Assembly: GCA_964016885.1 (NCBI GenBank)
Contig: OZ024749.1
Location: 22,630,001-22,694,000, forward strand
Origin: Eledone cirrhosa
Lineage: Eukaryota
Direction: 5' to 3'
DNA: 64,000 nucleotides
Shown: positions 500 to 58,322 of the stretch, in pieces
Position numbering within the stretch: position 1 is the first letter of the stretch
How the letters are laid out: every line of letters begins with the position of its first letter
Made by a program: the position numbers and the translations under genes
Notes under the pieces: generated by a model
Databases searched by the model: none
Seen by the model: the letters and a program-made list of their open reading frames with translations, nothing else
Told to the model about the DNA's origin: nothing

Positions 500-871
<372 letters not shown>

Positions 872-1799
872 ATACTTTGGGAGGGTCATGTTGCCAATAA
901 GAAACACACGCACCAGTTGCTTTCACTTCAATTTAATTTATTATATATTTATAAATTTACAAATTTATAAATTTCTGGTTGGTTGGTTGGTTCCACAACC
1001 AGATAGTTGTTTATATATATATAGTCATAGGTCTTTCGTCACACACTCTGTGACCTCTTCAGTGACTGGGGATTTCTTTCTTCGTTTCTGTGCCTTTCCT
1101 TTCTTCTATCCTACGCCATTTTGTTTGTGTGTGGGTTGCGTGCTCAGTTTGCGCATGCGCCACATCCGGGTGTCTGTGTGTGTTTGTGTTCATTTTTCTA
1201 TTTTTCTATTTATATTTGTTTGTTTATTTATTTATTTATTGTTGGTTGGTTGTTTGTTCTATGTGTGTGTGTGTTTTCATTTTGTGTGTGTTTTCAATTG
1301 TAAGTTGTTTGTTCTATGTGTGTGTGTGTTTTCATTTTGTCCTTAATTGTAAGTTGTGATGTTGCTGTTCCACTCATATTTTCTATTTAATTTTGGTTTT
1401 AATTCTTTTATGCTTACTGCCTCTGTAATTTGCCTAAACATTGCGTCTTTCTTGTGTGTGGATTCTATTTTTATTTCTATGCTCTCTAATTTACCCCTGT
1501 GTTCTATCTTAGCATGTTGGTAGAGCACAGATGATTCTTTACTATCTTGGAGGTCTCGCCAGTGTTCATTTATTCGTTCCCCTATACTACGAGCTGTCTC
1601 ACCTATGTACACTATATTTTTGTTTCTACATTGTCCTTCAGTACATCTTATGCTATATACGACATTTCTAGTTTTACAGTTAATATGGGGGCTTATTTTA
1701 CAGGTTATACATTTCTTATCTATACATGAGGGTCTTTGGAACGGGTATGTCTTGCTAATAAGTGTTTTTACGGAGGTACCAGGTCTTTCTACTATCTTA

Positions 1800-3324
1800 A
1801 TACTTAAGCTTACCCATAGTAATAGTTACCTAGACACTTACGACCTTAGCAACCTGTGCCCTACAAGACCAGCAAGAGGCAGACCACCTACCATTACCTC
1901 AATGGCCAAGAAAACCCACACAGATAGATGGAACGGGTGGACCAGAGCCAAACGGACACCCGAAAACCACGATGAACTGAAGAAAATGATTGCACATGCG
2001 GTAGGGGCCAGCATAAAATTAACCCTTAAGGAACATATGTTCAAATTTAATGGTAAAACATATGCCCAAGAGGAAGGAGCAGCCATTGGTGTTAGCATTG
2101 CAGGCGACATAGCTAACTTATTCATGGTATGGTGGGACAGTAGACTTAAACAAAAACTTAATGAACAATTAGAAGACAGCTTAACCCTGATAATGTACTC
2201 CCGCTACGTAGATGATATAAACATCGTAGTTAAGACACCCCCACTAAAGAACAGTCAGGAACCAGAGAAAAACACAATGGAAAGCATCCAGCAAATAGCA
2301 AACTCCATCCACCAGAGCATTAGAGTTACTATAGACTACCCAAGTAGACACCCCAACCATCGATTACCTGTACTAGACACAGAGCTCTGGTTAGATACTA
2401 TTAACAACCAAAAACAAATCCTCCATTCCCATTATGCCAAACCCATGACTTCCAAACATCTGATCCACCGAAACTCGGCCATTTCGGCCCATACCAAAAT
2501 CAACATACTGATTGCGGATTTGGTACGGGTGATGAGAAATGTGTCCCGCATGTGCAACCCCGAAGAACTAGAGAGACACATACAACACTTCATCCACCGT
2601 ATGCAGTTCTCAGAGAGATAGAATCAGAGTGTATAAAGGAGCCAGAACCAAATGGGAAAAAATGGTAAATAATGACATAAATGGGACCTGCCCCTTGTAT
2701 AGGAGCAAATTTTGGAATAGAATAGAAAGAACTAAGAACAAGGCCAATAGAATAAACTCATCGTATGATAGCAATATATACCAGAGTGTAATGTTCATCA
2801 ATACAACCCCTAGAGGCGAACTAGCCTACAAATTTAGAAGGGCCCTAAAGAAACATAATCTCAATATTAAGATAGTAGAAAGACCTGGTACCTCCGTAAA
2901 AACACTTATTAGCAAGACATACCCGTTCCAAAGACCCTCATGTATAGATAAGAAATGTATAACCTGTAAAATAAGCCCCCATATTAACTGTAAAACTAGA
3001 AATGTAGTATATAGCATAAGATGTACTGAAGGACAATGTAGAAACAAAAATATAGTGTACATAGGTGAGACAGCTCGTAGTATAGGGGAACGAATAAATG
3101 AACACTGGCGAGACCTCCAAGATAGTAAAGAATCATCTGTGCTCTACCAACATGCTAAGATAGAACACAGGGGTAAATTAGAGAGCATAGAAATAAAAAT
3201 AGAATCCACACACAAGAAAGACGCAATGTTTAGGCAAATTACAGAGGCAGTAAGCATAAAAGAATTAAAACCAAAATTAAATAGAAAATATGAGTGGAAC
3301 AGCAACATCACAACTTACAATTAA
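1800..3324 (+). pseudogene. PLE reverse transcriptase + GIY-YIG endonuclease, 5'-truncated, one frameshift near 2610
   Basis: ORF 1605-2621 (RT part from ~1800) and ORF 2629-3324. Comparison with 53981-54010 shows an 11-nt deletion (ctggttacaat) at ~2610. Confidence 0.93.
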
Positions 3325-3621
3325 GGACAAAATGAAAACACACACACACATAGAACAAACAACTTACAATTGAAAACACACACAAAATGAAAACACACAC
3401 AAGACAAAATGAAAACACACACACACATAGAACAAACAACCAACCAACAATAAATAAATAAATAAACAAACAAATATAAATAGAAAAATAGAAAAATGAA
3501 CACAAACACACACAGACACCCGGATGTGGCGCATGCGCAAACTGAGCACGCAACCCACACACAAACAAAATGGCGTAGGATAGAAGAAAGGAAAGGCACA
3601 GAAACGAAGAAAGAAATCCCC

Positions 3622-3666
3622 AGTCACTGAAGAGGTCACAGAGTGTGTGACGAAAGAACTATGACT
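3622..3666 (+). ncRNA. Minimal type I hammerhead ribozyme in PLE pLTR (mirror copy 1023-1067 minus; homologue 52434-52476 minus)
   Basis: agtca-CTGAAGA-g-gtcac-agagtgt-gtgac-GAAA-gaac-TA-tgact. Stem I 5 bp, stem II 5 bp, minimal stem III. Confidence 0.85.
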
Positions 3667-4543
3667 ATATATATATAAACAACTATCTGGTTGTGGAACC
3701 AACCAACCAACCAACCAGAAATTTATAAATTTGTAAATTTATAAATATATAATAAATTAAATTGAAGTGAAAGCAACTGGTGCGTGTGTTTCTTATTGGC
3801 AACATGACCCTCCCAAAGTATAACAATATCGGTTTCAACACACGATTTCAGATAAAGAATCTTGCTAAACAAATTCAGAAACGATATATATATATACATA
3901 CATACATACATACATACATACATACATACATACATACATACATACATACATACATACATACATACATACAATAGACAATGTCCAGTTTATCTCACCGGAA
4001 GAATGAAAATAATAAAGGTGAAAGTCAAAAACAAACCCGACCAAGAGATGAAGAAGAATATTTACTTTAGTCTCCTACACATATCTATATCTATATTTCC
4101 ACATAGCGATCATCAGCCATGTGTTGATGTCTCTCATATCTACGCTATGTACACGCTATCTGCATTATGTTCATTCTGAACATTTTGTATGCTTTCTACG
4201 TTATGTACGCCATTTTTGTTCTATCGAACGCGATTTTGTTTTTTGTTTTTCGCTTCTTTTATTATGTACTTTTATTATGTTACGTTGTTAAGCATGAGAC
4301 GAGAGAGATGAGTGAAATATTGATACAGTCAACCATTGACACGATATTAGCTTCTGCTAGTAAAGTATTACGTGTCCACTATTGTATTTTATTAGGTTGA
4401 TCCTTCCCTTGCCCAGTCTATATGTGTATATATATATCAATATTTATCAATATATATATTGGTATATATAGATATATATATATTATATATATATTTATAT
4501 TTTCTCTAATAATTCTTCAAACTTGCAATTTTATATATATGTA

Positions 4544-4900
<357 letters not shown>

Positions 4901-4903
4901 ACA

Positions 4904-4937
<34 letters not shown>

Positions 4938-5263
4938 AATGAAGTATTTCCGTCGGAAACGTACAGGAAAAATAAGTGCTCTCTGTCGGCTACAGAGCTT
5001 ATTAGTTATGTAATAAACAACATAAGATAATTATTTCATTTACCAGTGGTTTCTTGAAGGCAGATGTTATGTGTATCTTCAGTCATCAGAATTTTTTTTT
5101 CAGCCTCACTTTCATATTTCCTAAATTTTGTTTTCAAATCCTTATTTAATAAAAACACCATGTTATTTATTCATTCTGACGACTGAAGACAGACATAACG
5201 TCTGCCTTCAAGAAACAACTGGTAAATGAAATAATTATCTTATGTTGTTTATTACATAACTAA
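4938..5263 (-). mobile_element. PLE pLTR-like fold-back with hammerhead: tail 4938-5001, arms 5002-5092 and 5173-5263
   Basis: ~90-bp inverted repeat with a hammerhead in both arms. Confidence 0.8.
5170..5230 (+). ncRNA. Type I hammerhead ribozyme (mirror copy ~5035-5093 minus, core CTGATGA)
   Basis: ttcatt-CTGACGA-ctgaagacagac-ataac-gtctgccttcaa-GAAA-caactgg-TA-aatgaa. The mirror copy has stem III cca-c-tgg. Confidence 0.8.
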
Positions 5264-5430
5264 ATATATATATATATATATTCTTCACCCTGGCGGTTTA
5301 ACGCCCCTTGTTATTTTATTTGAACGGGTATATGAATATATCTGTGTTTATCTTTCTTTATATATTATATTATATATGTATATATATGAATATTTATATA
5401 TGTATGAATCTATTTATGAGTTTGTGTGTT

Positions 5431-5503
<73 letters not shown>

Positions 5504-5507
<4 letters not shown>

Positions 5508-5758
5508 TTTATTTTATAGAAGGAGCTTCTACAGGACTAGTACTGTTTCATTCAGATGAAATCTTCAGGAAGCTCCTGAAGCTCCTGAAGCCCCTGAAGC
5601 TCCTGAAGCTCCTGAAGCTCCTTGAGCTTCCTGAAGATTTCATCTGGATGAAACAGTACTAGTCCTGTAGAAGGTCCTTCTATAAAATAAAAAAATTTTA
5701 CTCTGCCATGTATTGAGTACCTTACTTACTGTGGTTATCCCCGACTCAACCCGGGACC

Positions 5759-28086: not shown

Positions 28087-28295
28087 GTATATATATATAT
28101 ATATATATATATGTAGATAAATTGATAGTTTGTATAATTTTGTACATAGATCTGTTGAATATGCATGCCAATTCTAACATATATATCCTAGAAACGATCG
28201 TTAAATAATGAACTTTTTTTGTTTAATATAAGGAACTGTTTCATTGTTTTATTCATTATTTTTTTAATATTTTATATATATATATATATATATAT

Positions 28296-30247
28296 ACAAT
28301 AACTTCATACGCAACGAACTACACAAAAAATATAGAAAAACAAATGAAATTACGCTAGCAAATATTAACAACGAGGCATATAAAGTGTTGAAGAATCTCA
28401 AAATAGACGATAGAACCGAGCCGATTATACCCGCCACCTTCAACCTGAAGGACCATAAGGTACATTTTGACTCTAACCCTAAGATTAGACTTATATGCCC
28501 TTCTAAATCAGACATAGGGAAAATTAGCAAACATATACTTGACAGAGTAATAACTCAAGTGAAAAAGAAAATTGAAATTAAATTATGGGGCAACACTAGC
28601 GAAGCAATTCGCTGGTTTAATAATGTTAAGAATAAGAATAAATCTAAGTTTATACAATTTGACATAGACGAATACTACTCTTCCATCTCACCAACCACTT
28701 TACGTAAGGCCCTATCGTTTGCTAAGGCCAATTCCGACCTAACGGAGGACGAAATTAATATTATTCTCGAGGCTAGAAAAACCATTATTAAGTTCGATAA
28801 CTGCTACTGGGAACGTAAGGACAGACCCACAAATTTCGACATTACCATGGGTTCCAACGACTCGGCGGAGGTCACGGATCTCGTGGGAATATACATAGCC
28901 CACATATTACATAGTAAATTTAGTAATCTACAGGGGGGGGGGGGGGGGATATACAGAGATGACGGGCTCTTATTAGTTAATAACTTGAATAACCAAAATC
29001 TTGAAAGGCTACGGAAAGATATTAGAAAATCTTTTAGTGAACTGTGTCTAAAAATAACATACGAATACAATCTTAAAGTAGTAAACTTTCTGGACGTAAC
29101 TCTTAATTTAAATACCGGACAGATACGACCCTTCCACAAGGTGAATGAGAACCTTACGTATATTAACTTTAACTCTAACCACCCACTCTCCATGATCAAA
29201 TCAGTTCCCCGGAGTATTTCTCTTAGAATCTCTCGCCTATCGTCTAACTCTGATATTTTTAGTGAACACGCTGAATACTACAATAATGCATTAAGGAATG
29301 CTGACCACCGGGACACAATAGAATACATTGATAGGGATTTCCATAACACACGTAGCTCTACACGAAATCAAGGAATACGTAACCGGGGAACTAAAATACA
29401 AGCACACACACACACACAGTACTACCAGACATACTAATAATAGAAAATCACCACCAAATAAATCACGTTGTAGAAAGTATATCTGGTACAATCCTATTTT
29501 TAATGCCTCGATTAGTACAAAACTATCTCTTTCATTCTTTAAGTTAATCAACAAACACTTCCCTAGTTCCCATAAATACAGCAAAATTCTGAACTCTAAA
29601 ACTATTAGACTATCATACTCCACGGCACCAAACCTTGAAGCATACATAAAAAACTTAACTTAAGGCAATTAAACAACTCTACAAAACAAAACATTTTAGT
29701 AACAGATGGGCAGAACACAATATCTGCCTCCCAACCACTAAATGGGAGACGGGTATTACACAACCCACCTGTACCGCTATCACAACCTATCCATGGTATA
29801 CCCGCTACCCACAACAAGGAATGTAACTGCCATCTACCTGAAAGATGTCCATTGAAGAATGAATTCCTAAAGTCCAACATTGTTTACCAATGCACGGTTG
29901 AATCGAACGACCAGAAATGGTATTATATCGGATCTACCACCACCTCGTTTAAATCTCGCTGGTACCGTCATCGATTCTCAATCAAACATCCTAATCACCG
30001 TTTTGTGACCACGCTCGCCAACAAGACCTGGCAACTCCGTGAACACAACCAACAGTTCACCTTAAAATGGGATATACTTTCCAGCGCAAGTGCATATCGG
30101 AGTGGATTGAAGTACTGCAGGTTATGTAACCTTGAGCTCTTTTACATATTAAAATCCCAAAACAAACTACTTAACGATAGAATTGAACGATCATTATACT
30201 GCAACCACAAACTAAAAGCTAAATTCTCTCACTATAAAATAACTTAA
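28296..30247 (+). pseudogene. PLE RT + GIY-YIG, frameshifted (ORFs 28385-29437, 29328-29663, 29852-30247)
   Basis: Motifs as above. Frameshifts near the (CA)n at ~29403-29418 and at ~29660, and a poly-G run just before YRDD. Confidence 0.9.
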
Positions 30248-37715: not shown

Positions 37716-38162
37716 TAATAAGAGGAATTCCAACTTTGTCTGATTTACTCGTTTTATTTACAATCCTTTAAAATATATATAATGGTATTATAATGAAATA
37801 GTATGATAGAATATTAAATTCTAAGTGTTAATTGAACAAGTACTTTCATGCTTTCGCAATCTTCAGGTTCATGATATGTGGTGACAGTCGAGTTTGCAAT
37901 TTTCAACTGTGAAAATTTTCAACAGTTGAAAATTGCAAACTCGACTGTCACCACACATTATGAACCTGAAGATTGCGAAAGCATGAAAGTACTTGTTCAA
38001 TTAACACTTAGAATTTAATATTCTATCATACTATTTCATTATAATACCATTATATATATTTTAAAGGATTGTAAATAAAACGAGTAAATCAGACAAAGTT
38101 GGAATTCCTCTTATTAATATAATCTTCTATACACAATCATACACACCCGTGTATATTTACCT
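37716..38162 (+). mobile_element. Near-perfect 195-bp-arm palindrome (37716-37910 / 37922-38116) plus tail; PLE pLTR fold-back
   Basis: Arms differ at about two positions, and each carries a hammerhead. Confidence 0.9.
37961..37999 (+). ncRNA. Minimal type I hammerhead (mirror copy 37833-37871 minus)
   Basis: tgaac-CTGAAGA-t-tgc-gaaa-gca-t-GAAA-gtac-TT-gttca, with palindromic loop III. Confidence 0.88.
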
Positions 38163-52237: not shown

Positions 52238-54230
52238 TTCGTTTCTGAATTTGTTTAGCAAGATTCTTTATCTGAAAACGTGTGTTGAAACCGATATTGT
52301 TATACTTTGGGAGGGTCATGTTGCCAATAAGAAACACACGCACCAGTTGCTTTCACTTCAATTTATTATAAAGGAAATTTATAAATTTCCGGTTGGTTGG
52401 TTGGTTCCACAACCAGACGATTGTTCATATATTGTCAAAGTTCTTTCGTCACATATTCTGTGACCTCTTCAGTGACTGGGGATTCTTTTCTTTGTTTTTG
52501 TGCCTCTCCTTTGTTTTGTACAACGCCATCTTGTTTGTGTGTTTGTTGTGTGTTTAGTTTGCGCATGTGTTACATCCGGGTTACATGGCGTAATGGAGAG
52601 ATTGCATGCTTTCCAACAGAATGTCGGTTGACAGTCTGTCAAACTACATCCAGGCAATGCAACCCCACAACTAAAACAAGAGAAATAACACCACGAGAGC
52701 ATGAGGATAGCGAAAAAACCCTCAATGCCCATATGATGATGTGGACAAACATAATGCAGCCCAACAAAAGGACTGCCAACAACTTCCAGGAACAATGACG
52801 TGCCAGCGTTGTATGCGCTTCGAAAAGACCATAAAAAGAGCAGTGACCCTGTCACAGGACCACCGACACGGCCAGTCTGTGGAGCTAACATTGCTAGTCA
52901 TTACAGACTTTCCTACTTCCTCTCCCTGATCATACGCCCCATCATTGAAATGTCCCCAGATATATGAGACAGCATGGAGGACCTCCTCAGCAGAATCAGT
53001 GAAAGTAACCGATCTAGAGACCTAACAAACTGCATAATAGGTAGTATGGATGTTGTGTCCCTATATCCATCTATTGACGTGGATTTTGCTGTGGAGAAAT
53101 GCGTAGAAATGATCAGTGAGAGCAATGTTGAGTTCCGTGGGATTGATACCAGTGAGCTGGGACTCATACTTAAACTTACCTATAGTAATAATTACCTAGA
53201 CACATATGACCTTAGCAACCTGTGCCCTACAAGACCAGCAAGAGGCAGACCACCTACCATTACCTCAATGGCCAAGACAACTCACACAGATAGATGGAAC
53301 GGGTGGACCAGAGCCATACGGACCCCCGAAAACCGCGATGAACTAAAGAAAATGATTGCACATGCGGTGGGGGCCAGTATAAAATTAACCCTTAAGGAAT
53401 ATATGTTCAAATTTAATGGAAAAACATATGCCCAAGAGGAGGGAGCAGCCATTGGTGTTAGCATTGCAGGTCACATAGCTAACCTATTCATGATAAGGTG
53501 GGACAATAGAGTTAAACTTAAACTTAAAGAACAATTAGAAGACCGCAACCTCTTAACCCTGATAATGTACTCCCGCCACGTTGATGATATAAACATCGTA
53601 GTAAAAACACCCCCACTAGAGAACAGTCAGGAATTAGAGAAAAACACCATTGAAAGCATCCAGCAAATAGCTAACTCCATCCACCAGAGTATTAGAGTTA
53701 CTATAGACTACCCAAGCAAATACCCGACCATCGATTACCTGTACTAGTCACAGAGCTCTGGTTAGATAATATTAATAACAAAAAAAAAAACAAATCCTCC
53801 ATTCCCATTATGCCAAACCCATGACTTCCAAATATCTGATCCACCGAAACTCAGCTGTTTCGGACCATACCAAAATCAACATACTGATTGCGGATTTGGT
53901 ACGGGTGATGAGAAACGTGTCCCGCATGTGCAACCCCAAAGAACTAGAGAGACACATACAACACTTCATCCACCGTATGCAGTTCTCTGGTTACAATCAG
54001 AGAGATAAAATCAGAGTATATAGAGGAGCCAGAACCAAATGGGATAAAATGGTAAATAATGATACAAATGGGACCTGCCCCCTGTATAGGAGCAAATTTT
54101 GGAATAGAATAGAAAGAACTAGGAATTAGGTTAATAGAATAAACTCATGGTATGATAGCAATAAATACCAGAGTGTAATGTTCATCAATGCAACCCCTAG
54201 AGGTGAATTAGCTTACAAATTTAGAAGGGC
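52238..54230 (+). mobile_element. Second copy of the 864-3884 PLE family: complete pLTR end on minus (52238-52585) joined to a forward RT fragment (52585-54230)
   Basis: High identity to 1800-2845 and 3520-3884. RT motifs GSMDVVSLYPSI and SRHVDD, with stops and frameshifts. Confidence 0.93.
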
Positions 54231-54896: not shown

Positions 54897-56000
54897 CCGA
54901 CTAACATGCTGTTCCGGACTATAAGCTAACATGTTGTTCCGGACTATAAACTAACATGCTGTTCCGGACTATAAGCTAACATGCTGTACATACTATAAAC
55001 TAACATGTTGTTCTGGACTATAAGATACAATGCTGTTCCGGACTATAAGCTAACATGCTGTTCCGGACTATAAGCTAACATGCTGTTCCGGACTATAAGC
55101 TAACATGTTATTCAGGACTATAAGCTAACATGCTGTTCCGGACTATAAGCTAACATGTTATTCAGGACTATAAGCTAACATGCTGTTCCGGACTATAAGC
55201 TAGCATGCTGTTCCGAACTATAAGCTAGCATGATGTTCCGGACTATAAGCTAGCATGCTGTTCCGGACTATAATTTAACGTTGTTCCGGACTCTAAGCTA
55301 ACATGCTGTTCCGGACTATAAGCTAAATGCTGTTCCGGACTATAAGCTAACATGCTGTACTGGACTATAAGCTAACATGTTGTTCCGGACTATAAGCTAA
55401 CATGCTGTTCCGGACTATAAGCTAACATGCTGTACCGGATTATAAGCTAACATGTTGTTCCGGACTATAAGCTAACATGTTGTTCCGGACTATAAGCTAA
55501 CATGCTGTTCCGGACTATAAGCTAACATGCTGTACCGGATTATAAGCTAACATGTTGTTCCGGACTATAAGCTAACATGCTGTTCCGGACTATAAGCTAA
55601 ATGCTGTTCCGGACTATAAGCTAACATGCTGTACTGGACTATAAGCTAACATGTTGTTCCGGACTATAAGCTAACATGTTGTTCCGGACTATAAGCTAAC
55701 ATGCTGTACCGGACTATAAGCTAACATGTTGTTCCGGACTATAAGCTAACATGTTGTTCCGGACTATAAGCCAACATGCTGTTCCGGACTATAATCAAAC
55801 ATGCTGTTCCGGACTATAATCTAACATGCTGTTCCGGACTATAATCTAACATGCTGTTCCGGACTATAAGCTAACATGCTGTTCCGGTCTATAAGCTAAC
55901 ATGTTGTTCCGGACTATAAGCTAGCATGCTGTTCCGGACTATAAGTTAGCATGTTATTCCGGACTATAAGCTAGCATACTGTTCCGGACTATAAGCTAGC
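54897..56000. repeat. 25-bp minisatellite (gctaacatgctgttccggactataa), ~44 copies
   Basis: Contiguous units with point variants and no spacers. It starts right after a SINE A head (54810-54900). Confidence 0.97.
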
Positions 56001-56324
56001 GTCATGTTTATTGATTTTTGAATTTTCAATAAGATAGGATATAGACTTAATTAAATTGTTGGCAGTTTTTTTATGGGTTCTTTGTTCCACATTTGTGGAC
56101 ATTGTTAAGATAATGATGATAGTGGTGGATTGGCAGAATCGGTGGAGCATCGGGTGAAATATATTGCAGTCATTCGTTACGACTCTTTCTTTACCTTCTG
56201 AGTTCAAATCCCGCCGAGGTTTCCTTTGCTTTTCATCCTTTCGGGGTCGATAAAATAAAGCACCAGTAATAACTGCTGGCCTTGTGCCAAACGTAGAAAC
56301 AACTATATATATATATATAGAGTG

Positions 56325-57527
56325 AGAGAATTAGTATATCTACCAACATATGTATACAGATGTAACCCATGCTAGCAAATATATATGTTATGTCTTAGTA
56401 CCTTTGTGGTTCTATGCAGGGGGATGCAGAACAATTATATGAAAGACGTAAAATAAGAAAATTTTAAAAATTAACTTACTTACTAAAATTTTCACTCCAA
56501 CTAATTAGTTTCTGTAAGGGAATAAATATAGTTACGCAACGCAACTAAAGAGAAGTCCTTATGTCATCAGGGAGTCTATTCACAGCTAGGTTCCCAGGCA
56601 ATGCGCGGACACTAGGAACCCATATAAAATAATAATTCAGTGGATGGAACAAAGCTAGCGGAGACTAAATTCCAGGACACTGAAAAAATTGACTGCCTAC
56701 TTGGTCAGTGGCAAATTCTAAAGAATCAATCACGTGACACTGAGGTTAATCAGTGAGGAGTGGGGTGGTATTATGACAAGAGCCTAACTACTACCATGAA
56801 CCATAGCAGTAAATTTCGGCTAGTTTTGCTCAACAAATAATTTGGAGATAAATATAGAGAATTAGTATATCTACCAACATATGTATACAGATGTATACCC
56901 ATGCTAGAAAATATATATGTTATGTCTTAGTACCTTTGTGGTCCTATGCAGGGGGATGCAGAACAATTATATGAAAGACGTAAAATAAGAAAATTTTAAA
57001 AATTAACTTACTAAAATTTTAGGGAATAAATATAGTTACGCAACGCAACTAAAGAGAAGTCCTTACGTCATCAGGGAGTCTATTCTCAGCTAGGTTCCCA
57101 GGCAATGCGCGGACACTAGGAACCCATATAAAAATAATAATTCAGTGGATGGAACAAAGCTAGCGGGGACTAAATTCCAGGGCACCAAGTAGGCAGTGAA
57201 TTTTTTCAGTGCCCTGGAATTTAGTCCCCGCTAGCTTTATTCCATCCACTGAATTATTATTTTTATATGGGTTCCTAGTGTCCGCGCATTGCCTGGGAAC
57301 TTAGTTGAGAATAGACTCCCTGCTGACGTAAGGACTTCTCTATAGTTGCATTGCGTAACTATATTTATTCCCTTACAGAAACTAATTAGTAGGAGTGAAA
57401 ATTTTAGTAAGTAAGTTAATTTTTAATTTTTGAAATTTTCTTATTTTACGTCTTTACATCTGTATACATATGTTGGTAGATATACTAATTCTCTATATTT
57501 ATCTCCAAATTATTTGTTGACCAAAAC
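56325..57527. mobile_element. Retrozyme-like element: 531-bp monomer x ~1.6 (minus) plus inverted arm 57185-57527
   Basis: agagaattagtatatctacc at 56325 and 56856, with the fold-back at ~57185. Confidence 0.85.
56494..56575 (-). ncRNA. Type I hammerhead with long stem II (copy 57315-57396 plus has CTGCTGA)
   Basis: actcc-CTGATGA-cataagg...ccttaca-GAAA-ctaattag-TT-ggagt, with palindromic loop III. Confidence 0.85.
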
Positions 57528-57621
57528 TTATAATGCCGATGTTGTTAGACTATTTTGAGTGTGTACTGCCTCTGCAGTAGAGCCCCCCCCCCCCCGCAGA
57601 TGACTACAGAAGTCAAAGGAC

Positions 57622-57656
<35 letters not shown>

Positions 57657-57761: not shown

Positions 57762-58320
<559 letters not shown>

Positions 58321-58322
58321 TC

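Follow-up and report, generated by a model that had tools for sequence, protein, structure and literature searches.

Decayed copy of an ORF-less hammerhead retrozyme family in Eledone cirrhosa, probably inserted into (TA)n by Penelope-like machinery

The analyzed window, a 64,000-nt stretch of the 3.0-Gb genome of Eledone cirrhosa (C9, positions 22630001-22694000), contains an insertion built of tandem and inverted copies of one unit. Its complete unit was used as a reference (U), numbered U1-U531 along positions 56325-56855. The features of the insertion and its flanks are listed below.

56304-56324: (TA)n target and, where U1 starts, a brief (AG)n stutter; located inside the tail of a SINE-like repeat
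56325-56855, minus strand: full unit U1-531, without ORF, 36% GC; the minus strand is the RNA sense strand
56325-56435, minus strand: 111-nt "tail" between the start sites U1 and U112; long hairpin predicted
56436-56441, minus strand: second start site of the family, U112 (TATATG on the plus strand), internal in this copy
56494-56575, minus strand: predicted type I hammerhead, core intact; cut predicted at 56499/56498 (U175/U174); one private mismatch in stem II
56757-56762, minus strand: CACUCC (U433-438), which is predicted to pair alternatively with the 3' strand of stem I
56844-56871: unit junction U531/U1, fixed across the family
56856-57185, minus strand: incomplete second copy (U1-356), in which GAAA, stem III and the cut site have been lost through a 24-nt deletion
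57184-57528, plus strand: inverted arm, reading along the plus strand U381-118, a 76-nt deletion, U41-1, the junction and U531-498
57315-57396, plus strand: hammerhead of the inverted arm, core mutated to CUGCUGA, GUA site
57535-57656, plus strand: truncated 3' end of a LINE-like repeat with a (TGA)n tail; flank outside the element, microhomology joint

An earlier note on this DNA had described an ORF-less unit of about 531 nt, present in approximately 1.6 direct copies and followed by an inverted arm that crosses the unit junction, and this description was confirmed in each respect. Unit U is followed by U1-356, which aligns to it at 90% (with gaps), so that the direct part comprises 1.6-1.7 units, and positions 57495-57528 mirror 56822-56855 with one mismatch. 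The longest ATG ORF, on both strands and with the unit read as a circle, encodes 30 aa.

Judged by its sequence, the window copy is decayed: it has lost three stretches of DNA, and its ribozymes are broken in two of three places. The deletion in the second unit covers U169-192 (24 nt), while the inverted arm is devoid of U42-117 (76 nt). An intron was considered for the latter gap and ruled out, since GT-AG ends are absent on both strands and other arms do not have the gap. After these later losses the copy would be unable to release a monomer from its direct arm. The outer end of the inverted arm (U498) is atypical and is joined, through a 9-nt microhomology with filler bases, to the truncated LINE-like 3' end, which begins at approximately 57535 and whose other copies reach further upstream; the sequence ATTTGTTGA is common to this repeat and to U. 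The odd arm end is likely the product of a local deletion that took the U112 start of the arm together with its (TA)n. In the neighborhood lie a 44-copy satellite with a 25-bp unit, set in a SINE-like context (54901-55998), and a long (TA)n flanked by 280-nt inverted arms (57762-58321).

The single locus contributes little, and the interesting part is the family to which it belongs. In a first look, the unit matched at least 2,644 genome candidates, 40 of which were scored. Searches with exact patterns identified 1,525 (TA)+U112 termini, 249 (AG)+U1 termini and 229 unit junctions, all of which are lower bounds, compared with 0 for each reversed control. Comparison of 154 long segments, 75-100% identical to U, revealed several subfamilies, with full units of 511-550 nt. 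Recurrence of the junction had been set beforehand as the check capable of refuting the note: a unit that is just the end of a long coding Penelope-like element (PLE) should run into other sequence. Among the 76 segments (from 77 distinct regions) that reach U524 or beyond, 72 continue into U1 and four into inverted unit sequence, while none enters an ORF or any other non-unit DNA, and therefore the refuting test fails. Crossing of the junction is nothing unusual for the family, being seen in 33 of the 89 U112 arms and in 13 of the 53 U1 arms. Thus, the possibility that the unit is merely the pseudo-LTR (pLTR) end of a coding PLE, or a satellite that DNA-level recombination has dispersed, seems very remote. 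Part of the family was examined, the search for a partner reached 50 of 150 listed loci (see below) and one array did grow locally, which leaves such an origin some room, but the copies are dispersed, mostly shorter than two units, and have fixed ends joined to the target. The longest array (6.8 units) contains shared variants that alternate, indicating that it grew at least partly in place; long arrays were accordingly rejected as evidence of rolling-circle copying. Family variants were also found in contigs of four runs, which are uninformative with respect to RNA.

With its short, low-GC, non-coding tandem units, fixed junction, high copy number and predicted hammerhead, the family is classified from its sequence as a non-LTR retrozyme. 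Hammerhead motifs spaced at 459 nt and 511 nt were observed at L302:5700-6230 and L311:7068-7620, respectively, and probably represent other retrozyme-like families. At L189 (C1:142895500-142901250), a short fold-back insertion has been triplicated together with its flank, with a period of 1,547 bp.

The minus-strand hammerhead consists of stem I (ACUCC/GGAGU), CUGAUGA, 51 nt leading to GAAA(C), the loop UAAUUA, a GUU site and, behind the cut, GGAGU. The stem II of about 50 nt given in the earlier note agrees with this structure (51 nt), whereas the 8-nt palindromic loop III proved to be the core of a 12-nt palindrome around the 6-nt loop. Searches against Rfam detected no hammerhead in the window at the gathering level, and only hairpin look-alikes at E≤10; the assignment therefore rests on the motif and on covariation. 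Across 27 units the helices are 96.5% paired, with 48 double-sided changes located in stem II and its extension; none of 500 shuffles matched this value and slid controls reached 35-46%, although kinship among the sequences can inflate such a statistic. It is the family norm for stem II to begin with a C.A mismatch at its base and for the cut site to be GUU, and stem III has only 1-2 bp; together with the missing Rfam match, these traits weigh against the interpretation given below. The core and stems are conserved across subfamilies that are 75-100% alike. Each unit of the family thus bears a predicted type I hammerhead. The folding of the whole unit beats 100 of 100 shuffles (z -4.7), whereas the hammerhead stretch alone does not outdo its shuffles in this way (z -1.4). 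The conserved CACUCC can pair with the 3' strand of stem I, and one subfamily (L149) has changed both sides (GGAAGUG / CACUUUCC), as a single event.

The outer ends were determined in 89 insertions picked by a U112 end (90 loci taken in order along C1, with one duplicate dropped), of which 59 are fold-backs and 30 single arms. The other arm of the fold-backs ends at U1-7 in 53 cases, at U112 in none, and elsewhere in six (one of which ran off the stretch). Conversely, 30 loci were picked by a U1 end, and in all 26 resolved fold-backs the other arm ends, by eye, at U112-114 (this count omits three single arms and one array running off the stretch). In a third set, picked by homology, 47 of 59 insertions have the U1+U112 combination and 12 have one non-canonical end (one of these being U1+U10). 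Among canonical fold-backs, the pairing of one U1 with one U112 end thus appears near absolute. Read on the ribozyme strand, a fold-back has a 3' end on either outer side, and the two starts lie 111 nt apart, leaving a tail on one side only (published tails measure 30-40 nt). The free permutation of ends that a randomly primed circle would give is absent, and two fixed starts are found instead.

The RNA reads UAUA or AUAU at both starts, matching the (TA)n target found at the canonical ends. Three or more extra AG units are present at 63 of 114 outer U1 ends, compared with none of 101 junctions. This stutter is confined to outer U1 ends, being observed in those of one subfamily; in a subfamily whose junction lacks the second AG, (TA)n is found directly at the U1 end. 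Three short fold-back inserts in (TA)n were also noted in the window at 4590-5700 (approximately 4595-4785, 4938-5264 and 5497-5690), the latter two with hammerhead-like motifs on both arms.

The inner ends of the fold-backs are usually unequal and some pairs of arms share no sequence (e.g. L123), which is why most fold-backs look like two separately started cDNAs. According to the self-priming model (PMC3846280), the inverted arm would instead be a snap-back product, in which one cDNA folds on a palindrome and primes itself. Such an origin is conceivable for approximately 14 of the 53 canonical fold-backs, whose inner ends lie, by eye, no more than 10 nt apart and often on palindromes. As a general route, however, snap-back was already disfavored and must be considered quite unlikely, because it is always the other fixed site at which the second arm ends, and arms of different subfamilies occur within one insertion (L170). 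Moreover, the inverted arm in the window holds 25 nt that lie beyond the point where the direct arm stops, and four family polymorphisms and a 7-nt insertion set it apart from the direct units.

Two separately started cDNAs could have been copied from one template or from two, and the template could have been a circle. The earlier proposal of a "circular or multimeric" template holds as an either/or, since the same sequence pattern would be left by a circle, an uncut multimer or a template jump, as well as by gene conversion. Its strong form, a true circular monomer copied in rolling-circle fashion, falls in our estimate a little short of even odds. The junction is fixed and arms can exceed two units; in 71 insertions compared, the two arms match each other best in 22, fall within the top tenth in 52 and lie below the median in five, although gene conversion could produce this similarity too. 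The conserved CACUCC could lock stem I in a circular RNA (predicted pairing), and circles are known for other animal retrozymes (PMC7229834). The window copy points both ways: its two direct passes share an uncommon U224 allele, outside the three most frequent ones of 305 close segments, while the different family alleles of its two arms point to two templates. A genome-wide test of shared rare variants gave 0.08-0.16 per 100 nt against 0.05 in the control and is blurred by recurrent mutation. The circle is thus permitted by the allele, array and rare-variant patterns, which fit other routes as well.

The positions at which arms stop were analyzed in the U112-picked set, which is unbiased in this respect. 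Of its 142 inner ends, 41 lie at U150-176, with 10 at U177-203 and 10 at U123-149 (p=1.5e-5). In a pool of 494 segments, part of them from biased queries, arms stop at a rate of 7.0 per 1000 nt within U140-176, compared with 1.9 within U177-204 and 1.9-3.4 in other parts of the unit. The palindrome AAAATTTT ends 7.2% of the arms when located at U161-168, 6 nt before the cut, and 1.6% when located at U134-141, while 1.2% end in the 12-nt palindrome that directly follows the cut. Among single arms alone the peak is weak (eight of 30 stop at U139-176 and three at U177-214), and of the 252 arms that reach U174, 242 read on. Since the stops pile up just before the predicted cut, with few just after it, these data suggest that self-cleaved RNA serves as a template in vivo. 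In the simplest reading, some templates would start at U174, and cDNAs ending there would be trimmed to the nearest palindrome and annealed. The read-through of most arms and the weak peak among single arms speak against this reading.

The same stops could also arise without any role of the ribozyme in template formation, through stalling of the reverse transcriptase (RT) at the folded hammerhead or through a transcription start at about U174. The largest peaks (U150 and U167-168) precede stem I and sit on palindromes, pLTRs can hold a transcription start (PMC8557442), and the ribozyme was dispensable in vitro (PMC11167929). This explanation nevertheless seems rather doubtful: 11 stops fall at U174-176, beyond the stem I strand, where 2.6 are expected (P=8e-5), the stop rate falls at once past the cut site, and longer hairpins (in the tail and at U262-297) give no comparable peak. 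The conservation of the hammerhead core and stems across subfamilies likewise argues against it.

Taken together, the anatomy of the insertions indicates that the window copy is a decayed, ORF-less retrozyme, most likely pasted into (TA)n by the RT and GIY-YIG nuclease of a PLE acting in trans (probability roughly 0.85). In agreement with the earlier note, both the retrozyme identity and the PLE-type inversion hold: 59 of 89 insertions fold back, as partial tandems with an inverted, 5'-truncated copy, and the ends are fixed in (TA)n. The link to PLE machinery drawn there is supported by the anatomy of the insertions. It had already been published, retrozymes having been interpreted as non-autonomous members of the PLEs (Li, Clavereau and Pollet 2026, 10.64898/2026.07.22.740005; PMC7229834).

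Coding PLEs are abundant in the genome, with 10,597 GIY-YIG candidates in a first look (150 listed), and RT and GIY-YIG matches also occur in the window. Among 50 of the 150 listed GIY-YIG loci, no termini homologous to U were found; the only homology to U came from two separate, neighboring U insertions. A search for a partner with a short-stem-II hammerhead pattern returned deletion variants of U in 29 of 30 matches, and the organization of an autonomous PLE, with an RT and GIY-YIG ORF between pLTRs, was encountered in none of the 76 read-throughs. The sole mark shared with U in these comparisons is a TTTCAT(AT)n end in one coding family.

Several PLE-related sequences were observed in addition. 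The window contains a broken coding PLE with a head-to-head inverted arm (867-3890; RT, E 2e-4; GIY-YIG, E 4e-5), hammerhead-like motifs at 3627 (plus) and 1062 (minus), a tail of about 57 nt apparently on one side only (by eye), and a related fragment at 52385-53747. At 28268-30247, an RT-like ORF together with GIY-YIG (E 1e-4) marks another PLE-like family. A head-to-head pair at 37866-37966 carries a minimal hammerhead motif that is also found downstream of PLE ORFs in L304, L305, L307 and L314. Finally, the 3' regions of L241-L269 represent three coding PLE families with a half-hammerhead-like motif (GAAACCGGTAA or a near variant) approximately 70-210 nt before a (TA)n end, with no clear CUGAnGA.

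Taking the 511-550-nt unit, its junction, the (TA)n targets, the two ends, the TATA/ATAT starts, the (AG)n, the stop pile-up and the covariation as its sequence basis, the following mechanism may be proposed: (i) a PLE protein would cut both strands of (TA)n; (ii) each DNA end would prime its own cDNA, the two starting on opposite sides of the 111-nt tail, with base-pairing between TATA and the RNA probably assisting; (iii) the RT would, again with good probability, slip on UCUCU at the U1 start and add (AG)n; (iv) microhomology, in many cases that of AAAATTTT, would connect the far ends of the two cDNAs; (v) some templates would have a ribozyme-made 5' end at U174, where the RT stops, a step held slightly less firmly than the preceding pairing and slippage; and (vi) most passes would read through the cut site and the junction, perhaps on a circle (just under an even chance), or else on an uncut multimer or by a template jump.

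A more far-reaching and tentative reading, which we consider unlikely to hold in full, sees the family as a fossil record in which a PLE dimer on a retrozyme circle primes cut (TA)n ends by base-pairing, one at each site flanking a structured tail, with a telomerase-like (AG)n stutter at one site, and copies until the hammerhead opens the RNA. If true, in vivo cutting by PLE-type hammerheads would be documented in genomic sequence, and the one-sidedness of the tail would be explained. The family bears on how PLEs build tandem and inverted copies and on the purpose of their hammerhead, the in vitro study having found the ribozyme dispensable (PMC11167929). Its counts and controls lead to predictions for a substrate of 531 nt that can do without an ORF in cis: each DNA end should be primed at its own one of two sites, RNA should have a 5' end at U174, and (AG)n should be added. 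It also shows one way in which microsatellites may be seeded.

Regarding known systems, the family resembles the metazoan non-LTR retrozymes (Cervera and de la Pena 2020, PMC7229834) in its ORF-less, low-GC tandem unit and type I hammerhead, and the same paper names PLEs as the likely mobilizer of retrozymes. It differs from them in unit length (511-550 nt versus 170-400 nt) and in its 51-nt stem II. Most copies here are partial tandems with an inverted arm, whereas the word "inverted" does not occur in the main text of that paper. The study of Li, Clavereau and Pollet (10.64898/2026.07.22.740005) reached the same conclusion on origin, and the unit length falls within its range of 51-972 bp. 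It argues from co-occurrence and pLTR homology, and its text does not describe insertion ends; here, in contrast, the PLE link comes from the anatomy of the ends, with no homologous pLTR found at 50 GIY-YIG loci. Only one of nine Xenopus dimers was cleaved in that study, which speaks against a ribozyme-made template end. A circular PLE template was proposed as early as 2014 (Cervera and de la Pena, PMC4209133).

The Anole Poseidon PLE, in which two internal RT starts define the tail in vitro (Frangieh et al. 2024, PMC11167929), shares with the family an AT-rich target, cutting and extension of both strands, and these two starts bounding the tail. In Poseidon, the starts show no strand difference, the tail is 30-40 nt long, priming is not target-homologous, RNA reads ending at the ribozyme site are absent and ribozyme cleavage had no apparent role, whereas here there is one start per arm, both match (TA)n, the tail has 111 nt and stops pile up at the cut. 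Among the papers searched, mostly open-access main texts, none was found to describe arms bound strictly to one start site each, or arms truncated where the hammerhead cuts. Endonuclease-positive (EN+) PLEs (Craig et al. 2021, PMC8557442; Arkhipova et al. 2013, PMC3846280; PMC4209133) have ORFs, unlike the family described here, and their one-sided tail is termed "often" present or "optional". The family shares with them partial tandems and an inverted, 5'-truncated copy, a tail at one end, a bias for microsatellites, in particular (TA)n (PMC8557442, PMC3846280), palindromic junctions and a hammerhead whose loop III is palindromic; non-autonomous Chlamys elements of this group, such as MRC1, likewise form head-to-tail copies.
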